A stretch of 64,000 bases of DNA from an uncultured Gammaproteobacteria bacterium (GTDB lineage: Bacteria > Patescibacteriota > Patescibacteriia > Patescibacteriales > UBA12465): NCBI GenBank assembly GCA_964616855.1, contig CAZTUJ010000004.1:3610-67609 (forward strand). Reading direction: 5' to 3'. Below the pieces are notes generated by a model that had not been told where the DNA came from, did not search any database, and was given only the letters and a program-made list of their open reading frames with translations. Positions 355-64,000 of this stretch are shown here, in pieces. Each line of letters opens with the position of its first letter. The stretch's first letter is position 1. The position numbers and the translations under genes were made by a program.

Positions 355-1632
355 TTAATTGTTAGAAAATAATTCTTTAGACATCTGTCCAAGGCCATCA
401 TGAGGAGCGTTAAGATAAGCATTAAGGGCGGCTCGAGCTAAACGACCATCACGGCGCCAATCCGGTAACCATTCATGCACCAAGCTCGGGTCTAAACTAT
501 CTAAGCCGGCGCCAATTGATAGCAACCACTCCCGATTAAAAACCTCCTGAGAGCCGACCGGCTCCGACATAATAATTGGCAAGCCTAGACCCGCATAAAA
601 ACTTAGCTCCGAAGGCTTGGTCCAGAGAACATCAGTATCACGCAGGCAAAGATTAAATAGACGGAAATATTCCATTTTCTGTGGATGAAAAACGATATTA
701 ATATTTTCATGATCACTAAGATTGAGACGTTTAAGGGCTTGAATAAAGTAATCACGCACATCCGTTCGACTACCAGCAATTAAATTAAGTTTAATCTTTT
801 TCTCGATAATCATTGGGCGCAATTTTTCTAAAATTAAAGCCCCTATTTCTCGCTGCGCACCTGCCCCGCCAACAGCAAAGGTTAAGGTTAATGGCCGTTC
901 AACTGTTTCGGGAAGAGAAAACATATTAACAAGGAGAGGGGCGTAAGAATTACGAAAAGATTTAAGCGGATCTAATACCACTAAGCGCTGGGCTAAATCT
1001 TGTTTTAATACTTCTTGATCATCGCCAATATTTTCTAAGGGTAAAGGAAAGCCACTTAATCTGATACGGTCAGCAGCTACGCCATACATACGTAAACGCT
1101 CACAAACTCTCTGGTTAGGGGCAAAATAGATTATCTTACTCTCTTTGGGATTAATCGGCGCCCAGGCGCGCGAGATATCGGTATCGCACACAATACAATA
1201 AATGTCTCCTTGATAACCATAGTATTCCGCACAATAGGCGGCGACAAAAAAAGTGGTAACAAAAGGCAAGGGCTCTTTATTTAAAGCTTCAATCATTTTT
1301 TTGCCCACCCCTTTTTTCACAGCTTTAAAAAATATTTTCTGCTGTAAAGTTAAGGCGGACAAATCTCGACGGGGATAAAAAGATTCAATTTTTTGAAAAG
1401 AGTCCATGGCTTTAAACACGAGTTCACCTAAAAAAGGAATACGTTTAAAATAAGAAATTTTTTCATAAGACTTCTGACTGTTTAACCAGTAAGCTTTTTC
1501 CCAGGCATCTATCCCTTCATAGTTATTAAGATTTAAAGAGCCGGCACGACTCCAGCTTAAAAGCGGATAAGCAGCCCGCTGATGACCGTAACCCATATCG
1601 GCCGCTACTAAATGAATTTTCTGATTACTCAT
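355..1632 (-). CDS. putative GT-B glycosyltransferase (MurG/MGDG-synthase-like)
   Basis: 425-aa ORF. The N-terminal loop HLVAADMGYGHQRAA and central AVGGAGAQREIG resemble GT28-type sugar transferases. Assignment is from motif memory only. Confidence 0.4.
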   Translation of the reverse strand: MSNQKIHLVAADMGYGHQRAAYPLLSWSRAGSLNLNNYEGIDAWEKAYWLNSQKSYEKISYFKRIPFLGELVFKAMDSFQKIESFYPRRDLSALTLQQKIFFKAVKKGVGKKMIEALNKEPLPFVTTFFVAAYCAEYYGYQGDIYCIVCDTDISRAWAPINPKESKIIYFAPNQRVCERLRMYGVAADRIRLSGFPLPLENIGDDQEVLKQDLAQRLVVLDPLKSFRNSYAPLLVNMFSLPETVERPLTLTFAVGGAGAQREIGALILEKLRPMIIEKKIKLNLIAGSRTDVRDYFIQALKRLNLSDHENINIVFHPQKMEYFRLFNLCLRDTDVLWTKPSELSFYAGLGLPIIMSEPVGSQEVFNREWLLSIGAGLDSLDPSLVHEWLPDWRRDGRLARAALNAYLNAPHDGLGQMSKELFSNN

Positions 1633-1702: not shown

Positions 1703-2635
1703 TTATTTAGAGGTAACAATGGTCGGCGCTCCTGCTCCCTGAATATATTGATAAGCATATAAGGCCGCGCTCGTGGCCTGCCCCATAGCAATAGTGATTT
1801 GCTTAAATTCACTACTAACAACATCACCAGCCGCAAATAAACCAGGAGTCTTAGTGCTGTATTTTTCATCAACTAAAATTTGGGAACGATCATCTCGATC
1901 CGCAAAATCAGCCACTAAATCCGTGCTGGCGATACGACCAATTTCTACAAATACTCCATCTAAGGGCAAAACAACATCAACTCCTTCAATATTATTATAA
2001 GTAAGGCTTTCAACTTTAGTCTCGCCATTAATTGAGACCATTTTAGCATTAGTAATGATTTTGATATTGGGGCGAGCCTTCACCTCTTCCACTAAAGAAT
2101 CAAAAGCTTTATAAGAATCGCTTCTAATTACTAAATAAACTTGAGCCGCAATTTTAGACATCACCTCAGCGGCATCAAAAGCGGAATTACCGCTACCAAT
2201 CACAGCTATAGTCTTACCTTTATAGAGCGGCCCATCGCAATTAGCACAATAAGAAACACCCTTACCACTTAATTCAATTTCCCCAGGAACAGCTAAACGT
2301 CGAGGGGCTAAGCCCATGGTAATAATTACGGTCTTGGCTTCATATTGATCTCTTTCGGTGAAAACAATAAAATTACCATCCGCTTTTTTCTCTAAACGCT
2401 TAACTTCACAATTCTTAATTTCTACCCCTGAAGCCAAAGCATGTTCATTAAAACGGGTAATTAAGTCAAAATTGCTAATATTAGTAAATCCTGGATAATT
2501 TTCAATCTCTCCCGCCCAAATAATCTGACCACCAGGCTCTTTCCCTAAAATCAAAGTCTTCATCTCCCTTCTGGCCGCATAGATGCCCGCAGTAATCCCC
2601 GCCGGTCCTTGACCAATAATAATAGTGTCGTACAT
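1703..2635 (-). CDS. trxB: thioredoxin-disulfide reductase
   Basis: 310 aa. FAD motif IIIGQGPAGITAG, redox-active CANCDG, NADPH motif VIGSGNSA. Confidence 0.9.
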   Translation of the reverse strand: MYDTIIIGQGPAGITAGIYAARREMKTLILGKEPGGQIIWAGEIENYPGFTNISNFDLITRFNEHALASGVEIKNCEVKRLEKKADGNFIVFTERDQYEAKTVIITMGLAPRRLAVPGEIELSGKGVSYCANCDGPLYKGKTIAVIGSGNSAFDAAEVMSKIAAQVYLVIRSDSYKAFDSLVEEVKARPNIKIITNAKMVSINGETKVESLTYNNIEGVDVVLPLDGVFVEIGRIASTDLVADFADRDDRSQILVDEKYSTKTPGLFAAGDVVSSEFKQITIAMGQATSAALYAYQYIQGAGAPTIVTSK

Positions 2636-2709: not shown

Positions 2710-3207
2710 AAAGATTAATTTAACTAATATTAAAGTAAAATTGTCAAAACTGAATATATTAGACTAACATTAGATAAATAATAAATGTTCTACGCAGAAC
2801 AATATCTATAAGCTCATTATAACAGCAATATTTATGTCTATTTAGAAAATAACAACTATTATTTTAAGAATCATTCTGCCACTATTGTTCTACGTAGAAC
2901 AAATCTAAAATAAACTAAATAAAAGAAATATTGATATTGGTTACTCTAAAAAATAATCCGCTAACGTATTTTCTTATTGTTCTACGTAGAACAAATTATT
3001 AGATTAACAATAATAAATAAAGACAGACGACCCTGAGTCCTTAAATATTAAAATGTTCTATGTAGAACAAATTAGTAGGCAGTAGAATAAGCCGGAAAAG
3101 TTTAAACCTGATCTCAAAATATTAATAATTGTTCTACGTAGAACAATTATTAATATAGAGCCGCCATCCCTAAGCTTCAAATAATAAATAATAAGGGAAT
3201 AGGCTAC

Positions 3208-3235
3208 AAAAAAACCGGCAAAAGCCGATTTTTTA
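3208..3235. terminator. weak bidirectional hairpin terminator downstream of tRNA-Ala
   Basis: A7-CCGGC-AAAA-GCCG-T6. Short GC stem flanked by A and T runs. Confidence 0.45.
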
Positions 3236-3239
3236 ATTG

Positions 3240-3313
3240 TGGACCATAAGGGACTTGAACCCTTGACCTCTTCCATGCCATGGAAGCGCTCTAGCCAACT
3301 GAGCTAATGGCCC
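3240..3313 (-). tRNA. tRNA-Ala (anticodon GGC)
   Basis: Complement reads GGGCCATTAGCTCAGTTGGCTAGAGCGCTTCCATGGCATGGAAG...GGTTCAAGTCCCTTATGGTCCA. Cloverleaf folds, G3:U70 identity pair present, anticodon loop AUGGCAU. Confidence 0.9.
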
Positions 3314-3420
3314 GTTTTGTTCTACGTAGAACAATTTATTAACGTAAATTATTTCTATATAATACCTAATCCTAGAGAAAAGTCAATAACAATAAAAATG
3401 AATATTTGTCAATAACTAAG

Positions 3421-3492
3421 TGCCCTCGCCAGGAATCGAACCTGGATTTAGAACTTAGGAGATTCTTGTTTTATCCATTAAACTACAAGGGC
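3421..3492 (-). tRNA. tRNA-Arg (anticodon CCT)
   Basis: Complement GCCCTTGTAGTTTAATGGATAAAACAAGAATCTCCTAAGTTCTAAATCCAGGTTCGATTCCTGGCGAGGGCA. Anticodon loop CUCCUAA, T-loop TTCGATT. Confidence 0.9.
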
Positions 3493-3578: not shown

Positions 3579-3607
3579 TTGACAAGAGAATAAAAATGTA
3601 CTACAAT
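3579..3607 (+). promoter_or_regulatory. candidate promoter TTGACA-17-TACAAT (bactofilin operon)
   Basis: TTGACA 3579-3584, 17-nt spacer, TACAAT 3602-3607. Confidence 0.55.
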
Positions 3608-3696
3608 AAAAACACTGGAATTTTCAAATAATTTCATTTAATCGCGTGTTTAAAACTAATAATCCGCTGCGTAGGAGGGGCGGATTGTTTAAATTT

Positions 3697-4098
3697 ATGT
3701 TTAGCAAGGACAACAAACTAGAAAAATTTAAAGAAGCCGAAACTATTATCGGCGCCTCTATTAAAGTAAAGGGGAACTTCAACGGCCAGGGCGATATTGT
3801 AATTGAAGGTTTTCTTGAAGGCTCTTTAAAAACAGAGTCTAATGTCTTCATCGGCGAAAAAGCCCGAGTTAACGCTAATGTTGAAGCTAGTGAAGCTTTA
3901 ATTAACGGAGAAATCAGCGGTAATATTAAAATCAAGAAATATCTAGCCATCGGAAAAACGGCAAAAATCATGGGCGACGTTCAATGCGGAGAAATCTCTA
4001 TTGAAAGAGGCGCCTCCATCACTGGGCAAATTCTTGTTTCCGCCGAAAGCTTGAAATTATCAGAAAATAAAAAAAATAGACCTGAGGAACAGGCCTAA
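3697..4098 (+). CDS. bactofilin family cytoskeletal protein
   Basis: Repetitive beta-helix pattern IKVKGNFNGQGDIVIEGFLEGSLKTESNVFIGEKARVNANVEA.ALINGEISGNI. I prefer the ATG at 3697 (MFSKDNK...) because MFSK matches the conserved bactofilin N-terminal membrane-targeting motif. The ORF track starts at GTG 3646. Confidence 0.85.
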   Translation: MFSKDNKLEKFKEAETIIGASIKVKGNFNGQGDIVIEGFLEGSLKTESNVFIGEKARVNANVEASEALINGEISGNIKIKKYLAIGKTAKIMGDVQCGEISIERGASITGQILVSAESLKLSENKKNRPEEQA

Positions 4099-4115: not shown

Positions 4116-4859
4116 ATGAACGCTTATATTTACGATGATTTTCTAAATAAAGGTCGCTATCGTCGCGCTTTAAACCGAGTAGAAATACGTCTCACCGACT
4201 TAGGCTTAAACGGAAAAATTATCCGTCTCGGAGCAATTAAGAATGTTAAAGACGCCGTCCAGGCAGAAATAAAAAACGGGATTAAAAATATAATCGCCGT
4301 TGGTAACAACGAAACTGCCAACAAAGTAATTAGCGCCATGATCAGTAATAAAGCCTATGGATTTTTCCAGAAGGATATTCTCTTTTCGATTATTCCGATA
4401 GGAAATAATAATTCAATTGCGGCTTCTTTTGGTATTCATAAAGAAGAAGAGGCCTGTAACATCCTGTTAGCGAGAAGGATCAAACAAATAGATATTGGCA
4501 TCGCCGGCAACAACATTTTTCTCAACAAAGCTGAGCTTACTAGCGATAATGCTCATATTAATATTAACGATGAATACAGCTTAGAACTAACGCGTAAGAC
4601 TAAAGTCCAAATTATCAATCTTAATGATAATCCCTCGTTAATTTATGGGGAAAGAGTTGATCCCTATGATAATAAGTTGAACCTTATTATTAATAATAAA
4701 ACACCAGAAGCCACTTTTATCACCAGTGATAATATAAAAATTTCCGGCAGCGGCGAAATTATCTTAGATGAATCAGTCGCTATTCCTCTACCCGCTGAAC
4801 TCGGCATTATTCAAGAAAAAATAAACATCATTGTGGGCAAAGATCGCAGCTTCAATTAA
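4116..4859 (+). CDS. diacylglycerol/lipid kinase-like (DAGK_cat/YegS-type) protein with degenerate nucleotide loop
   Basis: 247 aa. Topology YegS-like, but the GGDGT loop reads AVGNNETANKVISAM. Lies 17 nt after the bactofilin gene. Confidence 0.5.
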   Translation: MNAYIYDDFLNKGRYRRALNRVEIRLTDLGLNGKIIRLGAIKNVKDAVQAEIKNGIKNIIAVGNNETANKVISAMISNKAYGFFQKDILFSIIPIGNNNSIAASFGIHKEEEACNILLARRIKQIDIGIAGNNIFLNKAELTSDNAHININDEYSLELTRKTKVQIINLNDNPSLIYGERVDPYDNKLNLIINNKTPEATFITSDNIKISGSGEIILDESVAIPLPAELGIIQEKINIIVGKDRSFN

Positions 4860-6548: not shown

Positions 6549-6557
6549 TTATCCACT
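6549..6557 (+). promoter_or_regulatory. DnaA-box-like 9-mer TTATCCACT upstream of dnaA
   Basis: 8/9 match to TTATCCACA. Overlaps the putative dnaA promoter (followed by TATAAT). Confidence 0.45.
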
Positions 6558-6583: not shown

Positions 6584-7975
6584 ATGAATAATGAACAAAT
6601 CTGGCAGGCAACCCTAGGAGAATTAGAGATAAATCTTTCCCGGGTAAACTTTGTGACTTGGTTTAAGGACACTTTTCTGTCCTCTTTTGAAAATGGCCGA
6701 GCCATTGTCTGTGTGCCCAATGCTTTTGTAAAAAAATGGTTGGAAGAAAAATATCATAAAAATATTGTAAATTCTTTAGAAAATATTACCAAACAAAAGC
6801 TCCAGGAAATTATTTATAAAATCGAACTCCACCGCTCCACCCCCACAGAAATGACCCAAAAAATCAAAACAGAGTTAAATGAAAATGTTAAAGCTAGCCC
6901 AATTAACATCGAACATAAAAATAATAACAGTAATGTTGCTAATCGTTTTGGGCTTAATCCTAGATACGTTTTTGAAAATTTTGTTGTTGGCCGCGGAAAC
7001 GAATTAGCCCACGCCGCTTGCCGTGCAGTGGTTAATAATTTAGGTAGAGCCTACAACCCCTTATTTATCTACGGCGGCGTTGGCCTTGGTAAAACCCATT
7101 TATTACAAGCGATTGGTAATGAAGTTGCCAAACATACTGATAAAATTCTTTATACTACTAGTGAAAAATTTACCAACAATTACATTCAAGCCGTCCAAAC
7201 TGGTAAAGCTAAGGATTTTAAAAACATGTACCGTAATGTCGACCTCCTTTTAGTTGATGATGTTCAATTTATGGGGGGGAAAGACGGCACTCAAGAAGAA
7301 TTCTTCCACACTTTTAATGAACTCCAACAGGGTGATAAACAAATTGTCATGACCTCTGATCGCCCACCAAAATCCATTCCTGCCATCGAAAAAAGATTAA
7401 TTTCTCGCTTTGAATCGGGTATGGTGGCGGATGTGGGAAAACCAGACGTAGAAACTAAAATCGCTATTTTAGAAAAAAAATCTATTGAAAAAAGTTTTCC
7501 TCTAGATAAAGATGTTTTAATTTACATTGCTAACAACGTTCAAAATAATATTCGGGAGTTGGAAGGCGCTTTAAATAAAGTAATTGTAATTCACCAATTA
7601 AACAACTCCGTCCCCACCCTGAAAAGCGTAAAAAATGCCCTTAGTGATTATGTTTCCAGTCTTCAGGCTAAATCTTTAAGCCCTAAAGACATTATTGAAG
7701 CAGTGGCGCGTTTTTATGAAATCAGCCTAAAAGAAATCACAGGTAATAGCCGTCGCAAAGAATTGGTGGGACCCAGACAAATTGCCATCTATTTAATTCG
7801 AGAAGAATTAAATACTTCCTACCCTAGTATCGGCCAAGAAATGGGTGGAAGAGATCACACCACCGCTATGCATGCCTATAATAAAATCCGCAACGAAATC
7901 GGTGAGAATGAAAACGAAAAGTTAAAACAAGAAATGGAATCGATTAAACAGTTATTTGGTAACTCTCCATATTAA
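6584..7975 (+). CDS. dnaA: chromosomal replication initiator protein DnaA
   Basis: 463 aa. Walker A GGVGLGKTHLL, LLVDDVQF, C-terminal DNA-binding GGRDHTTAMHAY. Confidence 0.97.
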   Translation: MNNEQIWQATLGELEINLSRVNFVTWFKDTFLSSFENGRAIVCVPNAFVKKWLEEKYHKNIVNSLENITKQKLQEIIYKIELHRSTPTEMTQKIKTELNENVKASPINIEHKNNNSNVANRFGLNPRYVFENFVVGRGNELAHAACRAVVNNLGRAYNPLFIYGGVGLGKTHLLQAIGNEVAKHTDKILYTTSEKFTNNYIQAVQTGKAKDFKNMYRNVDLLLVDDVQFMGGKDGTQEEFFHTFNELQQGDKQIVMTSDRPPKSIPAIEKRLISRFESGMVADVGKPDVETKIAILEKKSIEKSFPLDKDVLIYIANNVQNNIRELEGALNKVIVIHQLNNSVPTLKSVKNALSDYVSSLQAKSLSPKDIIEAVARFYEISLKEITGNSRRKELVGPRQIAIYLIREELNTSYPSIGQEMGGRDHTTAMHAYNKIRNEIGENENEKLKQEMESIKQLFGNSPY

Positions 7976-8237: not shown

Positions 8238-9359
8238 ATGAAATTTATCTGCCTCCAGGAGAATTTAAAAAAAGGCCTCGCCGTTGTTAGCCACATAAAT
8301 AATAAGAATATTAATCTCCCTATTCTTAATAATATTCTAATCCGGGCTAATGACAGTGGGATTGAATTAATTAGCACTAATTTAGAAATCGGCATCACCC
8401 ATCAGTTAAGAGGAAAAGTGGATGAGTTAGGCGAAACAACTATTGACGCCAAGATTATTAGCGACTATGTTAATCTTCTTCCCTCTGAGAAGGTGGAATT
8501 TAAAGAGAGCGATAACGAAAGCTCTTTAAAATGTGAAAACTATAAAACAAAAATTAAAGGCGAATCAACTAAGGAGTTCCCCCTAATACCAGTAATTGAT
8601 AGAGATCATTATTCCGAATTTAATATTTTTGATTTTAAAAAAGCTTTAAATAGTGTAGCCTTTGCTGTAGCTAATAATGATAATCGTCTAGAGTTATCTG
8701 GAGTATTGTTTGAGTTTAGTGAAAATTATTTAACTATGGTGGCTACTGATAGTTATCGTTTAGCGGAAAGGAGAATTAATCTTAAAGGTGGTAATATTAA
8801 TTCCGGGAGAGTGATTGTGCCGGCACGGACGGTTCAAGAAATTTTAAGAATTATTTCCGGAATTAGTGCGGACGCTCAGTCGATTGAGTCTGATTTAGTA
8901 AAAATTTACTTATCTGACAATCAAATCCTCTTTGCTTTGGATTCGGTGGAATTAATTTCCAGATTGATTAATGGTCAGTATCCAGACTATAAACAAATTA
9001 TTCCGGATAAGTATAAAACTGAAGCTAATGTCAAAAGACAGGAACTTTTGCGGGCAATCAAAGCTTCTTCTATTTTTTCTAAAACTGGAGTCTATGATAT
9101 TTCCTTAGTTTTTAAAAAAGGCTTGATTAATGTTTATTCTTCTTCTGGCCAAAGCGGAGAGAGTTCTATTGATTTAAGCGCCGATGTTTCCGGCGAAGAT
9201 AATGACATCACGGTTAATTATCGCTACCTCCTCGATGGACTTAATATTAATGAAGGAGAATATATTACCTTAAGAGTAATTAATAATAACACCCCTTGTG
9301 CCCTTTCTTCGCAAGAAGAGTCTGACTATCTGTATATTGTTATGCCAATTAGAAATTAA
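8238..9359 (+). CDS. dnaN: DNA polymerase III beta sliding clamp
   Basis: 373 aa, follows dnaA. Typical three-domain clamp sequence (MVATDSYRLAERR, INGQYPDYKQIIP). Confidence 0.95.
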   Translation: MKFICLQENLKKGLAVVSHINNKNINLPILNNILIRANDSGIELISTNLEIGITHQLRGKVDELGETTIDAKIISDYVNLLPSEKVEFKESDNESSLKCENYKTKIKGESTKEFPLIPVIDRDHYSEFNIFDFKKALNSVAFAVANNDNRLELSGVLFEFSENYLTMVATDSYRLAERRINLKGGNINSGRVIVPARTVQEILRIISGISADAQSIESDLVKIYLSDNQILFALDSVELISRLINGQYPDYKQIIPDKYKTEANVKRQELLRAIKASSIFSKTGVYDISLVFKKGLINVYSSSGQSGESSIDLSADVSGEDNDITVNYRYLLDGLNINEGEYITLRVINNNTPCALSSQEESDYLYIVMPIRN

Positions 9360-14641: not shown

Positions 14642-14756
14642 CTGTTATATAAGGTAAGAAATGAAGTTTGCCAAAATAAATTTTGTCTTATTTAAAATTA
14701 ATATTCATGCTATTATTTTAATTATATTAATTAAATATTATTTTATTAACCAAAAT

Positions 14757-15062
14757 ATGAATAATTGGAATATTCCCAATTGGCTTGAAGAAGAAATTCA
14801 TAAAAGAGATACTCATTGTATCTATTGTGGGGTTAAATTTGATAAAGACGTTAAAAATAATCAAAAAACTATCGAACATATTATAAATGATGCAAAAATT
14901 ATAAATAGAGAAAATATAGCATTATGTTGTCGCTCTTGTAATGCCAGTAAAGGGTCAAAAAGTTTGTTTCATTGGTTGCTTTCAGATTATTGTAAAACAA
15001 AAAATATTATATCAAAGAATATTGCGCCTATTGCAAGAAAAGCATTAAAAAATGAGTCGTAA
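14757..15062 (+). CDS. HNH endonuclease
   Basis: HCIYCGVKFD...TIEHIIND...NIALCCRSCNASKG (HNH with CxxC pairs). The ORF track starts at 14661, but the first 32 codons are low-complexity AT-rich sequence, so the start is uncertain. Confidence 0.8.
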   Translation: MNNWNIPNWLEEEIHKRDTHCIYCGVKFDKDVKNNQKTIEHIINDAKIINRENIALCCRSCNASKGSKSLFHWLLSDYCKTKNIISKNIAPIARKALKNES

Positions 15063-25797: not shown

Positions 25798-26931
25798 TTA
25801 ATTGCGGCGGAGACTAAGGATTAAGGCGCCAAGACCAAAACCCGTCGCTATTAAGGATAAGACCCAGCCAATCATCGGGATGCTAAAGAGGAGCCAGAGT
25901 AGCGTGATTCCAATAATCATGCCGATTAGAAGTTTTTTCTCCGTTTCTTTATTCTTTAGAAAAAGATTAAGTATTTCTTGACCAACGATAATCGCACAGA
26001 TTATCTTGCCCAACCAGAGCATTAAGAGCCAGAGGCCAAAAATAATAAGGGCTAAAGGAAGGCCAATAAAGGTAAAGATTAGAATGAGGGCGGCCGTCGG
26101 TGCGGCTAATAAAATGAGGATGCCCCAGCCTAAACTGGCAAAAGGTTTTTCTTGAAGAATTTTTTTAAGGGCTAAAATAATATTTTTACCAGGGTAAATA
26201 ATAATTAAGCCCACGAGCATGGCTGAAAATATGCCGTATAGTAAAGACCAAAACCAATCCTTACTAGTCTGACCCTTAGATTCGGTGTTTTTTAAGACAT
26301 TAATCTGGCCACTTATTTGTGAGCCATCGGCTCTCTGTAATTCAGCGTTCTCGTGGTAGTTTAAGTTGCCGGCAATTTTAGCCCCTGAGCTGATGGTAAT
26401 TTTTTGAGCTTGCTGGCTTTGTCCAAAATTAAAATCTTTTCCCACTTTGCCAGCTAAGATCACATTATTTCCTCCGGCATCGACATTACCGCCAACTTCA
26501 CCCATAATGTTGGTGTTAGTGGCACCACTCAATATATCCCAGCCGATTTTTGCTTCTGGACCGACGACTAAAGAATTTCCTATAAAATTGATATTACGGG
26601 CGATGTTGCCGTTTAAATTAGCACTGTTAGCGGCTATTCTGATATTACCATTAACTTCACCGTTAACTGTTACCGTTTGGGCAATAGCAATCAGGTCTCC
26701 TTCCAAGCGGCCATTGATGGTAATAGTTTGGGCGGCGGCAATTAAATCTCCTCGGACTTCACCATCGATTGTAATATTATTACTAGCGGCATAAAGATTG
26801 CCATCAATTGTTTCCCCTTGGGGGAGATAGACGTCGTTGCCAGATTTTAGAGAGGAAGCTTGTGCTAGCCGGGGGCTGAAAATTAAAATGGCGACCAAAA
26901 GGCCAAGACCAAGGGCGATTTTTTTAAACAT
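25798..26931 (-). CDS. signal-peptide protein with bactofilin-like beta-helical repeats fused to a C-terminal polytopic membrane domain
   Basis: 377 aa. N-terminal signal (ALGLGLLVAILIFSPRLAQA), about 170 aa of G-x-V/I-x-G-D/N repeats (INGRLEGDLIAIAQTVTVNGEVNGNIRIAA...), then about 5 TM helices. Confidence 0.6.
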   Translation of the reverse strand: MFKKIALGLGLLVAILIFSPRLAQASSLKSGNDVYLPQGETIDGNLYAASNNITIDGEVRGDLIAAAQTITINGRLEGDLIAIAQTVTVNGEVNGNIRIAANSANLNGNIARNINFIGNSLVVGPEAKIGWDILSGATNTNIMGEVGGNVDAGGNNVILAGKVGKDFNFGQSQQAQKITISSGAKIAGNLNYHENAELQRADGSQISGQINVLKNTESKGQTSKDWFWSLLYGIFSAMLVGLIIIYPGKNIILALKKILQEKPFASLGWGILILLAAPTAALILIFTFIGLPLALIIFGLWLLMLWLGKIICAIIVGQEILNLFLKNKETEKKLLIGMIIGITLLWLLFSIPMIGWVLSLIATGFGLGALILSLRRN

Positions 26932-28752: not shown

Positions 28753-29400
28753 ATGAATTCTGAAAAAATAAACTTTAAGATTATTCTCGTTCTGGTCTTG
28801 TATCTCAGTTCATTATTAGCCGCTAATACGCTGGGTTTGAAATTAATGCCTTTTATTTTTGGCACTCATCTTTCGGTAGCGGTATTTTTCTTTCCCTTTG
28901 TCTTTTTGAGTACCGATGTTATCGGCCAGGTTTATGGTAAAGCCTGGGCGAAGAATTTTGTCTACGCCGGTTTATTAGCGACCGCTCTTTTTACTCTCTA
29001 TGCCGCGCTGTCTCTGTCTTTACCGTGGTCAACGACTAACGAAAAGATGCCTGAAGCCTATGCTCTAATTTTCGGAGTTTCTTTGAGAATGTCGCTTGCC
29101 TCTTTACTCGCCTTTTTTATTGCTGAGTATCAGGATGTGCTTGCTTTCTTTTTCTTTAAGAAATTATTACGGGGACGTTTTTTCTGGCTGCAGTCTAATC
29201 TGTCTAATCTCTGGTCACAGCTATTAGATACTTTAATTTTTATGTTTGTCGCCTTTGCGGGAATTTATCCGGTAAAGACAATTATTTTAGCAAGCTTGCC
29301 TTGGTGGCTTTATAAGGTTGCTATGGGCTTGGCTTACACCCCTTTATCTTATTTAGGGGTTTATCTTCTTCGTTATGGAAATACGCGCCCTCAAGACTAG
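28753..29400 (+). CDS. yhhQ: queuosine-precursor transporter (VUT/YhhQ family)
   Basis: 215 aa, 6 TM. FFFPFVFLSTDVIGQVYGKAWAK resembles the YhhQ signature. Confidence 0.75.
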   Translation: MNSEKINFKIILVLVLYLSSLLAANTLGLKLMPFIFGTHLSVAVFFFPFVFLSTDVIGQVYGKAWAKNFVYAGLLATALFTLYAALSLSLPWSTTNEKMPEAYALIFGVSLRMSLASLLAFFIAEYQDVLAFFFFKKLLRGRFFWLQSNLSNLWSQLLDTLIFMFVAFAGIYPVKTIILASLPWWLYKVAMGLAYTPLSYLGVYLLRYGNTRPQD

Positions 29401-30073
29401 CCTATTTGTCGCCGGACAAGATTTATCTTTATTTATTACGGCACATCTCCCTTCTTTGCAAGACGGGGATATTTTAGTGGTCACTTCTAAAATTGTGGCC
29501 CTAGCGGAGAATCGACTTATTGCTAAGGGGGCGGAGATTAGTAAAGAAGAAATTATTCGCCAAGAAAGTTCTTTTACCTTAGAGACCTCTCAGGTTTATT
29601 TAACAATTAAAGACGGAGCAGTGATGGCTAATGCCGGGATTGATGAAAGTAATGCCGGGGATAATTTTATTCTTTTACCTAAAGATAGTTTTCAGGCCGC
29701 CGCGGCCATTAGAGAGTATTGTTTAAAACATTATCAGCTTCGGAATTTAGGAGTGATTTTAAGTGATAGTCGTTGTCTGCCTCTGCGAGCTGGTGTCACT
29801 GGAATTGCTTTAGGCTATGCGGGGTTTCGGGGCCTTAAAAGTTACCGTGGTCAAGCGGACCTTTTTGGTCGCCCTTTTCGTTTTTCCCGCGTCGATGTGG
29901 CTGATAGCTTGGCAACGGCAGCGGTCTTATGTATGGGCGAAGGTTCAGAACAGACACCCTTGGCTGTGATCAGCAGCGCGCCCGTTGAGTATTGCGATGA
30001 AGTTAATCCTCAAGAACTTTCCATTGATATTAATGAGGATATGTATGGTCCTTTATTTAAAGCCCTTTTATAG
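29375..30073 (+). CDS. CofE-like gamma-glutamyl ligase (F420-0:glutamate ligase fold; context suggests a folate-related role)
   Basis: 232 aa. VVTSKIVALAENR and NAGIDESNA motifs of the CofE family. Overlaps yhhQ by 26 nt and precedes glyA-folD. Confidence 0.65.
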   Translation: MEIRALKTSLFVAGQDLSLFITAHLPSLQDGDILVVTSKIVALAENRLIAKGAEISKEEIIRQESSFTLETSQVYLTIKDGAVMANAGIDESNAGDNFILLPKDSFQAAAAIREYCLKHYQLRNLGVILSDSRCLPLRAGVTGIALGYAGFRGLKSYRGQADLFGRPFRFSRVDVADSLATAAVLCMGEGSEQTPLAVISSAPVEYCDEVNPQELSIDINEDMYGPLFKALL

Positions 30074-40106: not shown

Positions 40107-40532
40107 ATGCGCATGACCACGAAAAAATTATTATCTGCTCTTTTTCTGCTTTTTTTAGGATTTATCCAATTAAGTTTAATTTCTTTTGCTCAACCGGCTT
40201 TGGCAACGGAAGATTTACTAAAAACTCAGGAGGGTTTTCAGGGGAATGAGATCCAGAGTGCCTTCGGTAAGGATAAGCCGGACGATATTCGTTATACCGT
40301 AGTCCGGGTTATTATGATTACTCTTTCGGTGATTGGCATTATCTTTGTAGTTTTGCTAGTATTAGCTGGTTTTAAGTATATGACGGCGGCGGGAAATGAG
40401 GAAAAGGTTAAAGACGCTGTCAAGCAAATTACCCAAGCCACTATTGGTTTATTCATTATTCTTAGTGCTTGGTCAATCAGTTATTTTATTTTAACAAGAA
40501 TACGAGCGGCGATTAGCGGCACTAATCTATAA
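40107..40532 (+). CDS. TrbC/VirB2-like pilin (T4SS_pilin family common in CPR genomes)
   Basis: 141 aa. Signal peptide, then two TM helices flanking KYMTAAGNEEKVKDAVKQI. Confidence 0.6.
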   Translation: MRMTTKKLLSALFLLFLGFIQLSLISFAQPALATEDLLKTQEGFQGNEIQSAFGKDKPDDIRYTVVRVIMITLSVIGIIFVVLLVLAGFKYMTAAGNEEKVKDAVKQITQATIGLFIILSAWSISYFILTRIRAAISGTNL

Positions 40533-60695: not shown

Positions 60696-61754
60696 ATGGA
60701 CATTCGACAAGTTTTAAGAGAAACCGCTAGTCGTCAATCTTCCGATGTACACTTAGTTTTTGGCATGATGCCGATGATTCGCCATGATGGTCAATTACTA
60801 CCTTTTCGCGAGTTAGCAAGTGATAAAACTCTTGCCCCTTTGTCCGATTTAGATTTAGAGCAGGCAGTTAAGGCTTTATTAGATGCTAGTCAGCGGAAGG
60901 AGCTGGAGCAGCAAAAAGATCTGGATGCGGCGGTAACCGTCGATTCCTATCGTTTTCGTTTAAATTTTTCTTTTGACCGTGGTCATTTAAAAATGGTGGC
61001 CAGAGTTATTGATGAACGTAAGCCCACTCTTGAAGAAATTGGGATGCCTGCCTCGGCCGCCGATTTATTAGATTTGCCCCAGGGCCTAATTCTTATTACT
61101 GGTCCTACCGGCTGCGGAAAATCTACCACTTTAGCCGCAATGATTAATCATATTAATAGTCGTCGCAGTTGCCATATTATTACCTTAGAAGATCCAATTG
61201 AATATCTTTTCACTTCAGACAAGAGTTTGATTTCCCAACGTCAGCTGGGGGAGGATATGATTTCTTTTCCGGCCGGCCTTAAGCATGCTTTGCGCCAAGA
61301 TCCTAACGTGATTATGATTGGTGAGATGCGTGACTTGGAAACGATTGCGACCGCTATTACTTTAGCCGAAACCGGACATTTAGTATTGGCAACTTTGCAT
61401 ACTTATAACGCCGCTCAGACGATTGACCGAATTATAGATATTTTTCCTTCTCACCAGCAGGGACAAATTCGTTCTCAACTCTCTACGATTTTGGCGGCGG
61501 TAATTTCTCAGCGGCTTTTGCCGCGCGTGTCGGGGGGCCGAATTGCTGCTCGCGAGATCATGATTCGCAACAGCGCGATTGCCAACTTGATTAGAGAAAA
61601 TAAAATTGCTCAGATTAAAACGGTTTTAGAGACAAATATTCAGGGCGGAATGACGACCATGGACCGCAATCTTAAACAACTCTATCAAGCCGGCGAAATT
61701 GACCGGGCTACCGCTTTGAATTATATGGAGGAAAATGGGCTTTTAGACTCTTAG
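60696..61754 (+). CDS. pilT: type IV pilus retraction ATPase PilT
   Basis: 352 aa. Walker A GPTGCGKST, IMIGEMRD, LVLATLHT. Confidence 0.9.
   Translation: MDIRQVLRETASRQSSDVHLVFGMMPMIRHDGQLLPFRELASDKTLAPLSDLDLEQAVKALLDASQRKELEQQKDLDAAVTVDSYRFRLNFSFDRGHLKMVARVIDERKPTLEEIGMPASAADLLDLPQGLILITGPTGCGKSTTLAAMINHINSRRSCHIITLEDPIEYLFTSDKSLISQRQLGEDMISFPAGLKHALRQDPNVIMIGEMRDLETIATAITLAETGHLVLATLHTYNAAQTIDRIIDIFPSHQQGQIRSQLSTILAAVISQRLLPRVSGGRIAAREIMIRNSAIANLIRENKIAQIKTVLETNIQGGMTTMDRNLKQLYQAGEIDRATALNYMEENGLLDS

Positions 61755-62215: not shown

Positions 62216-64000
<1,785 letters not shown>

Follow-up and report, generated by a model that had tools for sequence, protein, structure and literature searches.

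A dense origin-proximal array of TGTTC-type parS-like sites as the probable chromosomal centromere of a Patescibacteria genome

In ParABS systems, ParB dimers bind parS, bind CTP, close as clamps and slide on DNA. The canonical parS consensus is TGTTNCACGTGAAACA (B. subtilis, Caulobacter), and Pseudomonas aeruginosa uses the parS sequence TGTTCCACGTGGAACA. The spacer between rsmG and parA is the textbook position of a parS site, and in other bacteria such sites often lie at a distance from parAB. In sopC, the centromere of the F plasmid, a 43-bp unit occurs 12 times in tandem, and SopB/ParB binds a 16-bp inverted repeat within each unit. Two other palindromes serve for comparison: the Noc-binding site, with the core ATTTCCCGGGAAAT, which is bound by the ParB paralogue Noc, and the LexA box of Verrucomicrobia, TGTTC-N4-GAACA, which is located in SOS promoters. 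In Myxococcus xanthus, the parS sites are spread over several kb beside parAB, and Lin et al. are said to have described in 2017 this parS cluster together with a bactofilin BacNOP-PadC scaffold. The parS site of B. bacteriovorus is TGTTCCACGTGGAACA, and two copies of it lie just upstream of parAB. This site nucleates the CTP-dependent accumulation of ParB, as shown by biolayer interferometry and by foci in E. coli, and B. bacteriovorus ParB rejects the Caulobacter site TGTTTCACGTGAAACA (PMC10547168).

We analysed a stretch of 64,000 nucleotides from a Patescibacteria genome (the window), which is recognised as Patescibacteria (CPR) by its genes and its nearest relatives. A search for the 16-bp palindrome TGTTCTACGTAGAACA that allowed up to two mismatches found exactly six matches in the window, all of them at positions 2786-3333. 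The array and its gene context are as follows; L082 and L085 are loci of close relatives.

355-1632, minus strand: gene for a DUF6938 protein.
1703-2635, minus strand: trxB; sites 1-5 lie between trxB and the tRNA-Ala gene.
2786-3333, no strand assigned: the array in full, 548 bp with six palindromes of the parS type; the spacers are unique and AT-rich, and the tRNA-Ala gene lies between sites 5 and 6.
2786-2801, no strand assigned: site 1, TGTTCTACGCAGAACA, one central mismatch (ACGC), about 150 bp upstream of the trxB start codon.
2886-2901, no strand assigned: site 2, perfect TGTTCTACGTAGAACA, in the 18-mer TTGTTCTACGTAGAACAA.
2978-2993, no strand assigned: site 3, perfect TGTTCTACGTAGAACA, for which L082 and L085 have a conserved counterpart in the alignment.
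3054-3069, no strand assigned: site 4, TGTTCTATGTAGAACA, one central mismatch (ATGT).
3130-3145, no strand assigned: site 5, perfect TGTTCTACGTAGAACA, at the centre of a longer perfect palindrome of 38 bp (3119-3156).
3239-3313, minus strand: tRNA-Ala(ggc), embedded in the array with sites 5 and 6 on either side.
3318-3333, no strand assigned: site 6, perfect TGTTCTACGTAGAACA, between the tRNA-Arg and tRNA-Ala genes, 4 nt upstream of the mature 5' end of tRNA-Ala.
3420-3492, minus strand: tRNA-Arg(cct), which flanks the array.
3646-4098, plus strand: bactofilin gene, with a promoter-like element at 3579-3607.
4116-4859, plus strand: gene for a DAGK-like protein.
Between the DAGK-like gene and dnaA, minus strand: yidC, yidD, rnpA and rpmH.
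6584-7975, plus strand: dnaA, the reference point for the origin.
8238-9359, plus strand: dnaN.

The number of TGTTCTACGTAGAACA matches expected by chance was 0.00 in 100 shuffles, and a looser search of the 64-kb window for TGTTC-N6-GAACA with up to one mismatch gave no copy beyond the six. The original prediction had described six copies within 550 bp that occur nowhere else in the 64 kb, and these searches bear it out. Its finer description is also correct: the four perfect copies (2886, 2978, 3130 and 3318) all extend to the 18-mer TTGTTCTACGTAGAACAA, the other two carry one central change, and five copies lie between trxB and the tRNA-Ala gene with the sixth between two tRNA genes, as the gene coordinates confirm. 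The spacers are, as had been stated, unique, AT-rich and unequal, with start-to-start distances of 100, 92, 76, 76 and 188 bp. Only the core of 16-18 bp is repeated, the spacing is irregular, and the window holds a single cluster, so that the array does not have the make-up of a tandem or mobile repeat (REP, MITE or CRISPR-like). By analogy, the array would work like sopC of F, in that many closely spaced palindromic sites of the ParB family form one compact centromere. However, sopC is built of regular tandem units with a plasmid-specific sequence, whereas the spacers here are unique and unequal and the sites belong to the chromosomal parS family.

The array is located near the origin: dnaA starts at 6584 and the cumulative GC skew has its minimum at approximately 6-8 kb in the window. 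Its distance to the start of dnaA is about 3.2 kb (3.25 kb), as originally proposed; the probable oriC is about 5 kb away. DnaA-box-like 9-mers are found around dnaA, at 6549, 7987 and 8176. Chromosomal parS sites are expected close to the origin, and this location, which is shared by relatives with the same origin synteny, agrees with that expectation. Among essentially every ORF of at least 90 aa in the 64-kb window, Pfam searches found no ParA, ParB, SMC or HTH regulator, and a permissive HMM search of the window again gave no ParA or ParB. The earlier statement that the window has no parA or parB gene therefore holds.

With the tRNA-Ala promoter predicted at 3386-3359, site 6 is downstream of it and would be part of the pre-tRNA leader. 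It is odd for a highly transcribed tRNA gene to stand within a putative ParB loading zone. Other features of the window include an HNH-endonuclease ORF directly after tRNA-His (14661-15062), a second, longer bactofilin-domain protein (25798-26931, minus strand), a homologue of the CofE-like F420-0:gamma-glutamyl ligase (29375-30073), a T4SS-pilin-domain protein (40107-40532) and a T2SSE/PilB-like ATPase (60696-61754). The 23S rRNA gene at 62216-64000 is cut by the end of the window; its 1785 nt cover model positions 1-1649, and it thus contains approximately 136 extra nt.

The motif has the sequence of the parS family, a 16-bp palindrome with the frame TGTT..ACGT..AACA. It is identical to TGTTCCACGTGGAACA at 14/16 positions, and the two sequences differ symmetrically, by C-to-T / G-to-A at position 6 of the half-site (CT form, as against the CC form of TGTTCCACGTGGAACA). 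Like the sites of the array, TGTTCCACGTGGAACA is a perfect 16-bp palindrome with outer TGTTC/GAACA and a central ACGT, and it is origin-proximal. Canonical TGTTNCACGTGAAACA shares the TGTT..ACGT..AACA frame, the role in ParB nucleation and the clustering near oriC, but the motif is identical to it at only 12-13/16 positions. The original prediction had counted 12/16 identities with the canonical ParB site and 13/16 with that of B. subtilis. These counts are correct and the assignment to the parS frame was right, but the closer match to TGTTCCACGTGGAACA had been missed. The prediction had also regarded a tight cluster with a variant half-site as an unusual centromere. The symmetric change and the tight clustering stand; however, the half-site is less variant than was thought, and more than one phylum has dense arrays: L041 has 4 sites within about 100 bp, L117 has 4 within about 200 bp and L091 has 11 within about 665 bp, among several phyla in all. 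Compared with B. bacteriovorus, the array is distinguished by its six copies in 550 bp and by its location away from parAB.

To place the motif among other organisms, we scanned 596 Gb, with one genome per species, for exact copies of TGTTCTACGTAGAACA and obtained at least 119 loci of up to 8 kb each. Because about 139 exact matches are expected by chance at this scale, the total by itself says little, and lone singletons elsewhere may be noise. The signal is the clustering of the sites and their linkage to genes. When the ORFs within 1.5 kb of the sites were clustered, the commonest neighbours in the 119 loci listed were ParA (33 loci), ParB (23), RsmG (17) and MnmG (14), and Pfam confirmed these identities (AAA_31/CbiA for ParA, ParB_N plus HTH_ParB for ParB, and GidB and GIDA). 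In 34 of the 119 loci listed, all from phyla other than Patescibacteria, parA or parB is present within the locus of up to 8 kb, whereas a random 8-kb window would contain parAB about 1% of the time or less; this argues for parS. The site is typically located in the rsmG-parA spacer or at parB, as in Bdellovibrionota, Acidobacteriota, Bacillota and others. Ten further loci of the 119 contain dnaN, recF or gyrB (SAR86, Legionellales, Francisellaceae), and five contain other origin-linked genes. The ParBs encoded next to the motif are canonical: the GERRWRAA box is present, and the proteins resemble the solved ParB/Spo0J structures 7BNK, 1VZ0, 6SDK and 6T1F, with E values of 1e-45 or lower.

The two forms of the site also occur side by side, both at parAB operons and in Patescibacteria arrays. 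Of the 34 par loci listed, 17 have the CT form next to sites that contain a CC half-site; these neighbouring sites are mostly full TGTTCCACGTGGAACA, with some hybrids such as TGTTCCACGTAGAACA. In Bdellovibrionales MAGs, one of the two sites upstream of parAB is of the CT form and the other of the CC form. The mixing extends to the Patescibacteria arrays L091, L121 and L090, and the L091 array consists of 4 CC/CC sites, 6 hybrids and 1 CT/CT site. We also took a census of parS types in the 80 metagenomic ParB loci closest to a Sarcina ParB. In these best 80 loci, which are mostly Firmicutes-like, the CT form is a minority parS form: the 79 parS-like sites included 61 copies of TGTTTCACGTGAAACA, 13 sites with a CC half-site and no CT site. 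The simplest reading of these sequences is a single specificity class, TGTTC-YRCGYR-GAACA, which would be read by an ordinary ParB. No new ParB specificity seems to be required, since the CT form is apparently tolerated alongside TGTTCC-type sites. The TGTTC-type sites may form a specificity class separate from canonical parS because the ParB of B. bacteriovorus refuses the Caulobacter site.

Several loci of the scan have peculiarities of their own. In Burkholderiaceae bacterium 16 and Cupriavidus basilensis OR16 (L094 and L096), a divergent parAB pair is flanked by 2-3 copies exclusively of the CT form, and the 343-aa ParB has GHYRKRA where GERRWRAA is expected. This pair may be the partition system of a secondary replicon that uses exact TGTTCTACGTAGAACA; a plasmid origin of the locus was considered and gave no match in PLSDB. 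The Acidobacteriaceae MAGs CAVTMX01 (L004, L005, L046, L063, L064, L072, L087) and CAVQLZ01 carry the 16-mer on many far-apart contigs. In these Terriglobia of about 60% GC, the AT-rich 16-mer is found at rsmG-parA as well, which suggests a large dispersed parS set. Viral contigs (IMG/VR, L203-L322) gave at least 120 single matches, mostly in one homologous phage coding sequence; in more than 60 of these contigs, the 16-mer lies in frame within the shared coding sequence (..GAYGTTGTTCTACGTAGAACAATTAATCAAAC..), and in a smaller group it adjoins a second palindrome, TTGTGTTACACAA. Only two of the viral matches are near ParB-like ORFs, and we dismissed them as coincidence with no bearing on the array.

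About 18 of the listed loci belong to Patescibacteria. They have 1-11 sites each in the same origin region, with bactofilin, DAGK-like, yidC, yidD, rnpA and dnaA genes. The closest relatives listed (L082, L085, L056, L009 and L044; 63-86% amino-acid identity to the window) have arrays of 4-11 sites in the same interval of trxB, tRNA-Ala, tRNA-Arg and bactofilin. L044 and L085 are named "Patescibacteria group bacterium" and L056 "Parcubacteria group bacterium". The order tRNA-Ala, tRNA-Arg and bactofilin is kept in all five, and a trxB homologue is visible in L082 and L085. The original prediction had called for a comparison of the trxB-tRNA spacer in related genomes and would have been refuted by the absence of the array from close relatives; the array is instead kept there at the same origin-proximal position. 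In more distant Patescibacteria, the arrays are located between the DAGK-like gene and yidC, and the bactofilin/DAGK-like pair stands beside the array in most of the roughly 18 loci listed.

Conservation is concentrated in the palindromes. When three of the sequences are aligned, the palindromes and the tRNA stand out as identical blocks amid diverged AT-rich DNA, and the outer TGTTC/GAACA is invariant in all 94 sites of the Patescibacteria loci listed, where only the central hexamer varies. The ACGC variant of site 1 is also present in L082, L085 and L102. Site number and spacing turn over freely among the relatives, and L082 contains a recent 47-bp duplication that carries a site. Judged from these sequences, the 16-mer and its approximate location are under purifying selection, and the exact architecture is not. 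A loading platform therefore fits better than a set of operators.

The relatives provided further observations. In the window, and likewise in L082 (6222), L085 (4467), L056 (1231) and L009 (746), a parS copy stands between tRNA-Arg and tRNA-Ala(ggc), 3-9 nt upstream of the latter's mature 5' end; L044 is the exception among the five closest relatives listed, with no copy at this position. Around the 94 sites, A predominates in the 5' flank and T in the 3' flank, by about 3-4 to 1. In a distant clade (L073, L062, L049, L114), the 6-nt flanks are often symmetric and yet differ between copies (taaaaa..ttttta, ccaaat..atttgg). Such symmetric flanks, and the 38-bp palindrome around site 5, could reflect extended recognition, DNA shape or a mutational process that perfects palindromes. 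A gene for a TrmB-family winged-helix protein is located near the sites in three loci of one distant subclade (L035, 2575-3372; L090, 6586-7395; L121, 2633-3319). The sites are at the 3' end of this gene in L090 and L121, and the site in L035 is about 800 bp upstream of it.

Taken together, these results make it very probable that the six TGTTC-type parS sites of the array constitute the centromere of this Patescibacteria chromosome, wholly or in large part. A non-random motif is confined to one spot by the origin, its CT form is mixed with TGTTCCACGTGGAACA-type sites in par loci and in Patescibacteria arrays, the palindromes are conserved in the arrays of relatives, and canonical ParBs are encoded beside the motif in other phyla. 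The parS reading of the original prediction is thus supported by the identical 16-mer at the parAB operons of many phyla, by its mixing with validated parS and by its conserved position. We infer that a canonical ParB, encoded outside the window, would bind each palindrome as a dimer through its helix-turn-helix domains. The ParB dimers would then bind CTP, close into clamps and slide onto the flanking DNA. With six loaders in 550 bp, ParB should be loaded at a high rate and the partition complex should be dense and compact, at about 3 kb from oriC; this complex would then be moved by ParA, used for SMC loading, or both.

The sites might instead be read by a ParB-family paralogue (Noc- or KorB-like) or by an unrelated protein, parAB having perhaps been lost, and serve to anchor or organise the origin, perhaps with the bactofilin. 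Such a reader would account for the lack of parA, parB and SMC within the 8-kb loci of the roughly 18 Patescibacteria relatives listed as well as of parAB in the 64 kb of the window, for the bactofilin/DAGK-like pair next to most of their arrays, and for the preference of their sites for extended symmetric A-rich/T-rich flanks. In a ParB profile search with 20 sequences, the matches listed were only Firmicutes-type ParBs, with no ParB from Patescibacteria. However, canonical parAB operons have sites with the identical 16-bp core, which is apparently interchangeable with validated parS, and its exact conservation is most simply explained by the conserved helix-turn-helix of ParB. The distance from parAB is also unremarkable, since parS sites are commonly remote from parAB elsewhere. 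Reading by a protein other than the segregation ParB is therefore improbable.

Control of trxB, the tRNA genes or the bactofilin operon by a dimeric transcription factor, with the palindromes as its operators, is very improbable. The sites are palindromic and intergenic, site 6 is in the tRNA-Ala leader, and L035, L090 and L121 have the TrmB-family HTH gene near their sites. However, promoters are predicted near the array at 3579-3607 (bactofilin), 3533-3505 (tRNA-Arg) and 3386-3359 (tRNA-Ala), and none of the six sites overlaps a predicted -35/-10 element. There is no regulator gene in the window, and TrmB was rejected as the partner of the array: it is confined to the one distant subclade and has no homologue in the window or in close relatives. 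The free turnover of site number and spacing does not suit operators, and in the various phyla the motif goes with parAB and the origin rather than with trxB or a coherent regulon. The operator array for an unknown HTH factor, which had been offered earlier as an alternative, thus receives no support. Two known palindromes were also rejected. The LexA box has the same TGTTC/GAACA arms, but its spacer is 4 nt long and it belongs to SOS promoters, whereas the spacer is 6 nt in all copies of the array and the neighbours are trxB, tRNAs and bactofilin. The Noc site differs from the motif at specificity positions. Unlike the motif, neither of them tracks parAB or the origin.

That the palindromes are nucleic-acid hairpins (terminators, processing signals or REP-like elements), a selfish repeat or a DnaA element of the origin is likewise very improbable. 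A stem of 6 bp with a loop of 4 nt could form in each copy, one copy lies directly at the 5' end of tRNA-Ala and another is the core of the 38-bp palindrome, but a scan of the array region found no T-runs or terminator-like sites, five of the six copies are in probably untranscribed DNA, the same core has unrelated flanks across phyla, and the motif is unlike the DnaA box, whose likenesses are at dnaA itself. A DnaA box and a REP-like repeat were each rejected for their sequence, spacing or context.

The centromere reading leads to the question of the bactofilin. M. xanthus resembles the present locus in having several parS sites near the origin and a par system linked to bactofilin genes. It differs in that its sites are beside parAB, whereas the array adjoins a bactofilin gene and has no parAB within the 64 kb, and no PadC-like adaptor was identified. 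The order parA-parB-bactofilin is found in about 10 loci of Bdellovibrionota and related bacteria among the 119 listed, with the bactofilin gene directly 3' of parB (for example L017, L020, L057, L061, L071, L086, L089 and L107). The presence of bactofilin by par loci recalls the bactofilin-ParABS scaffold of M. xanthus. The bactofilin and the array may be functionally linked.

The array is a parS variant, an element of a known kind and ordinary as such, and the general understanding of ParABS is unchanged by it. It deserves note for how densely its sites are packed, for its separation from parAB, for the conserved bactofilin gene beside it and for the one site in the tRNA-Ala leader. A literature search found nothing on ParB, parS or partitioning in Patescibacteria (CPR), and nothing on the 16-mer TGTTCTACGTAGAACA or its 12-nt core in a bacterial context. 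TGTTCTACGTAGAACA appears to be a recurrent natural form of parS alongside TGTTCCACGTGGAACA in several phyla. It could therefore be used to annotate origins and centromeres in metagenome-assembled genomes and to improve parS search matrices, which are now biased to TGTTTCAC. It is also a concrete substrate for studies of ParB specificity, and the six-site array could serve as a ready-made synthetic centromere for tagging.

For the organism, the centromere of a Patescibacteria (CPR) chromosome would thereby be placed. A centromere that is separate from parAB, or that works without it, is conceivable because no parAB was found in the 64 kb or in the roughly 18 related loci listed, most of which keep the neighbouring bactofilin gene. 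It is a rather unlikely extension that the centromere of Patescibacteria is a compact, fast-evolving parS array by the bactofilin/DAGK-like pair and the tRNA-Ala leader, in which the origin of these ultra-small cells would be positioned by ParB with bactofilin tethering or by SMC loading, and not by a classical ParA gradient.
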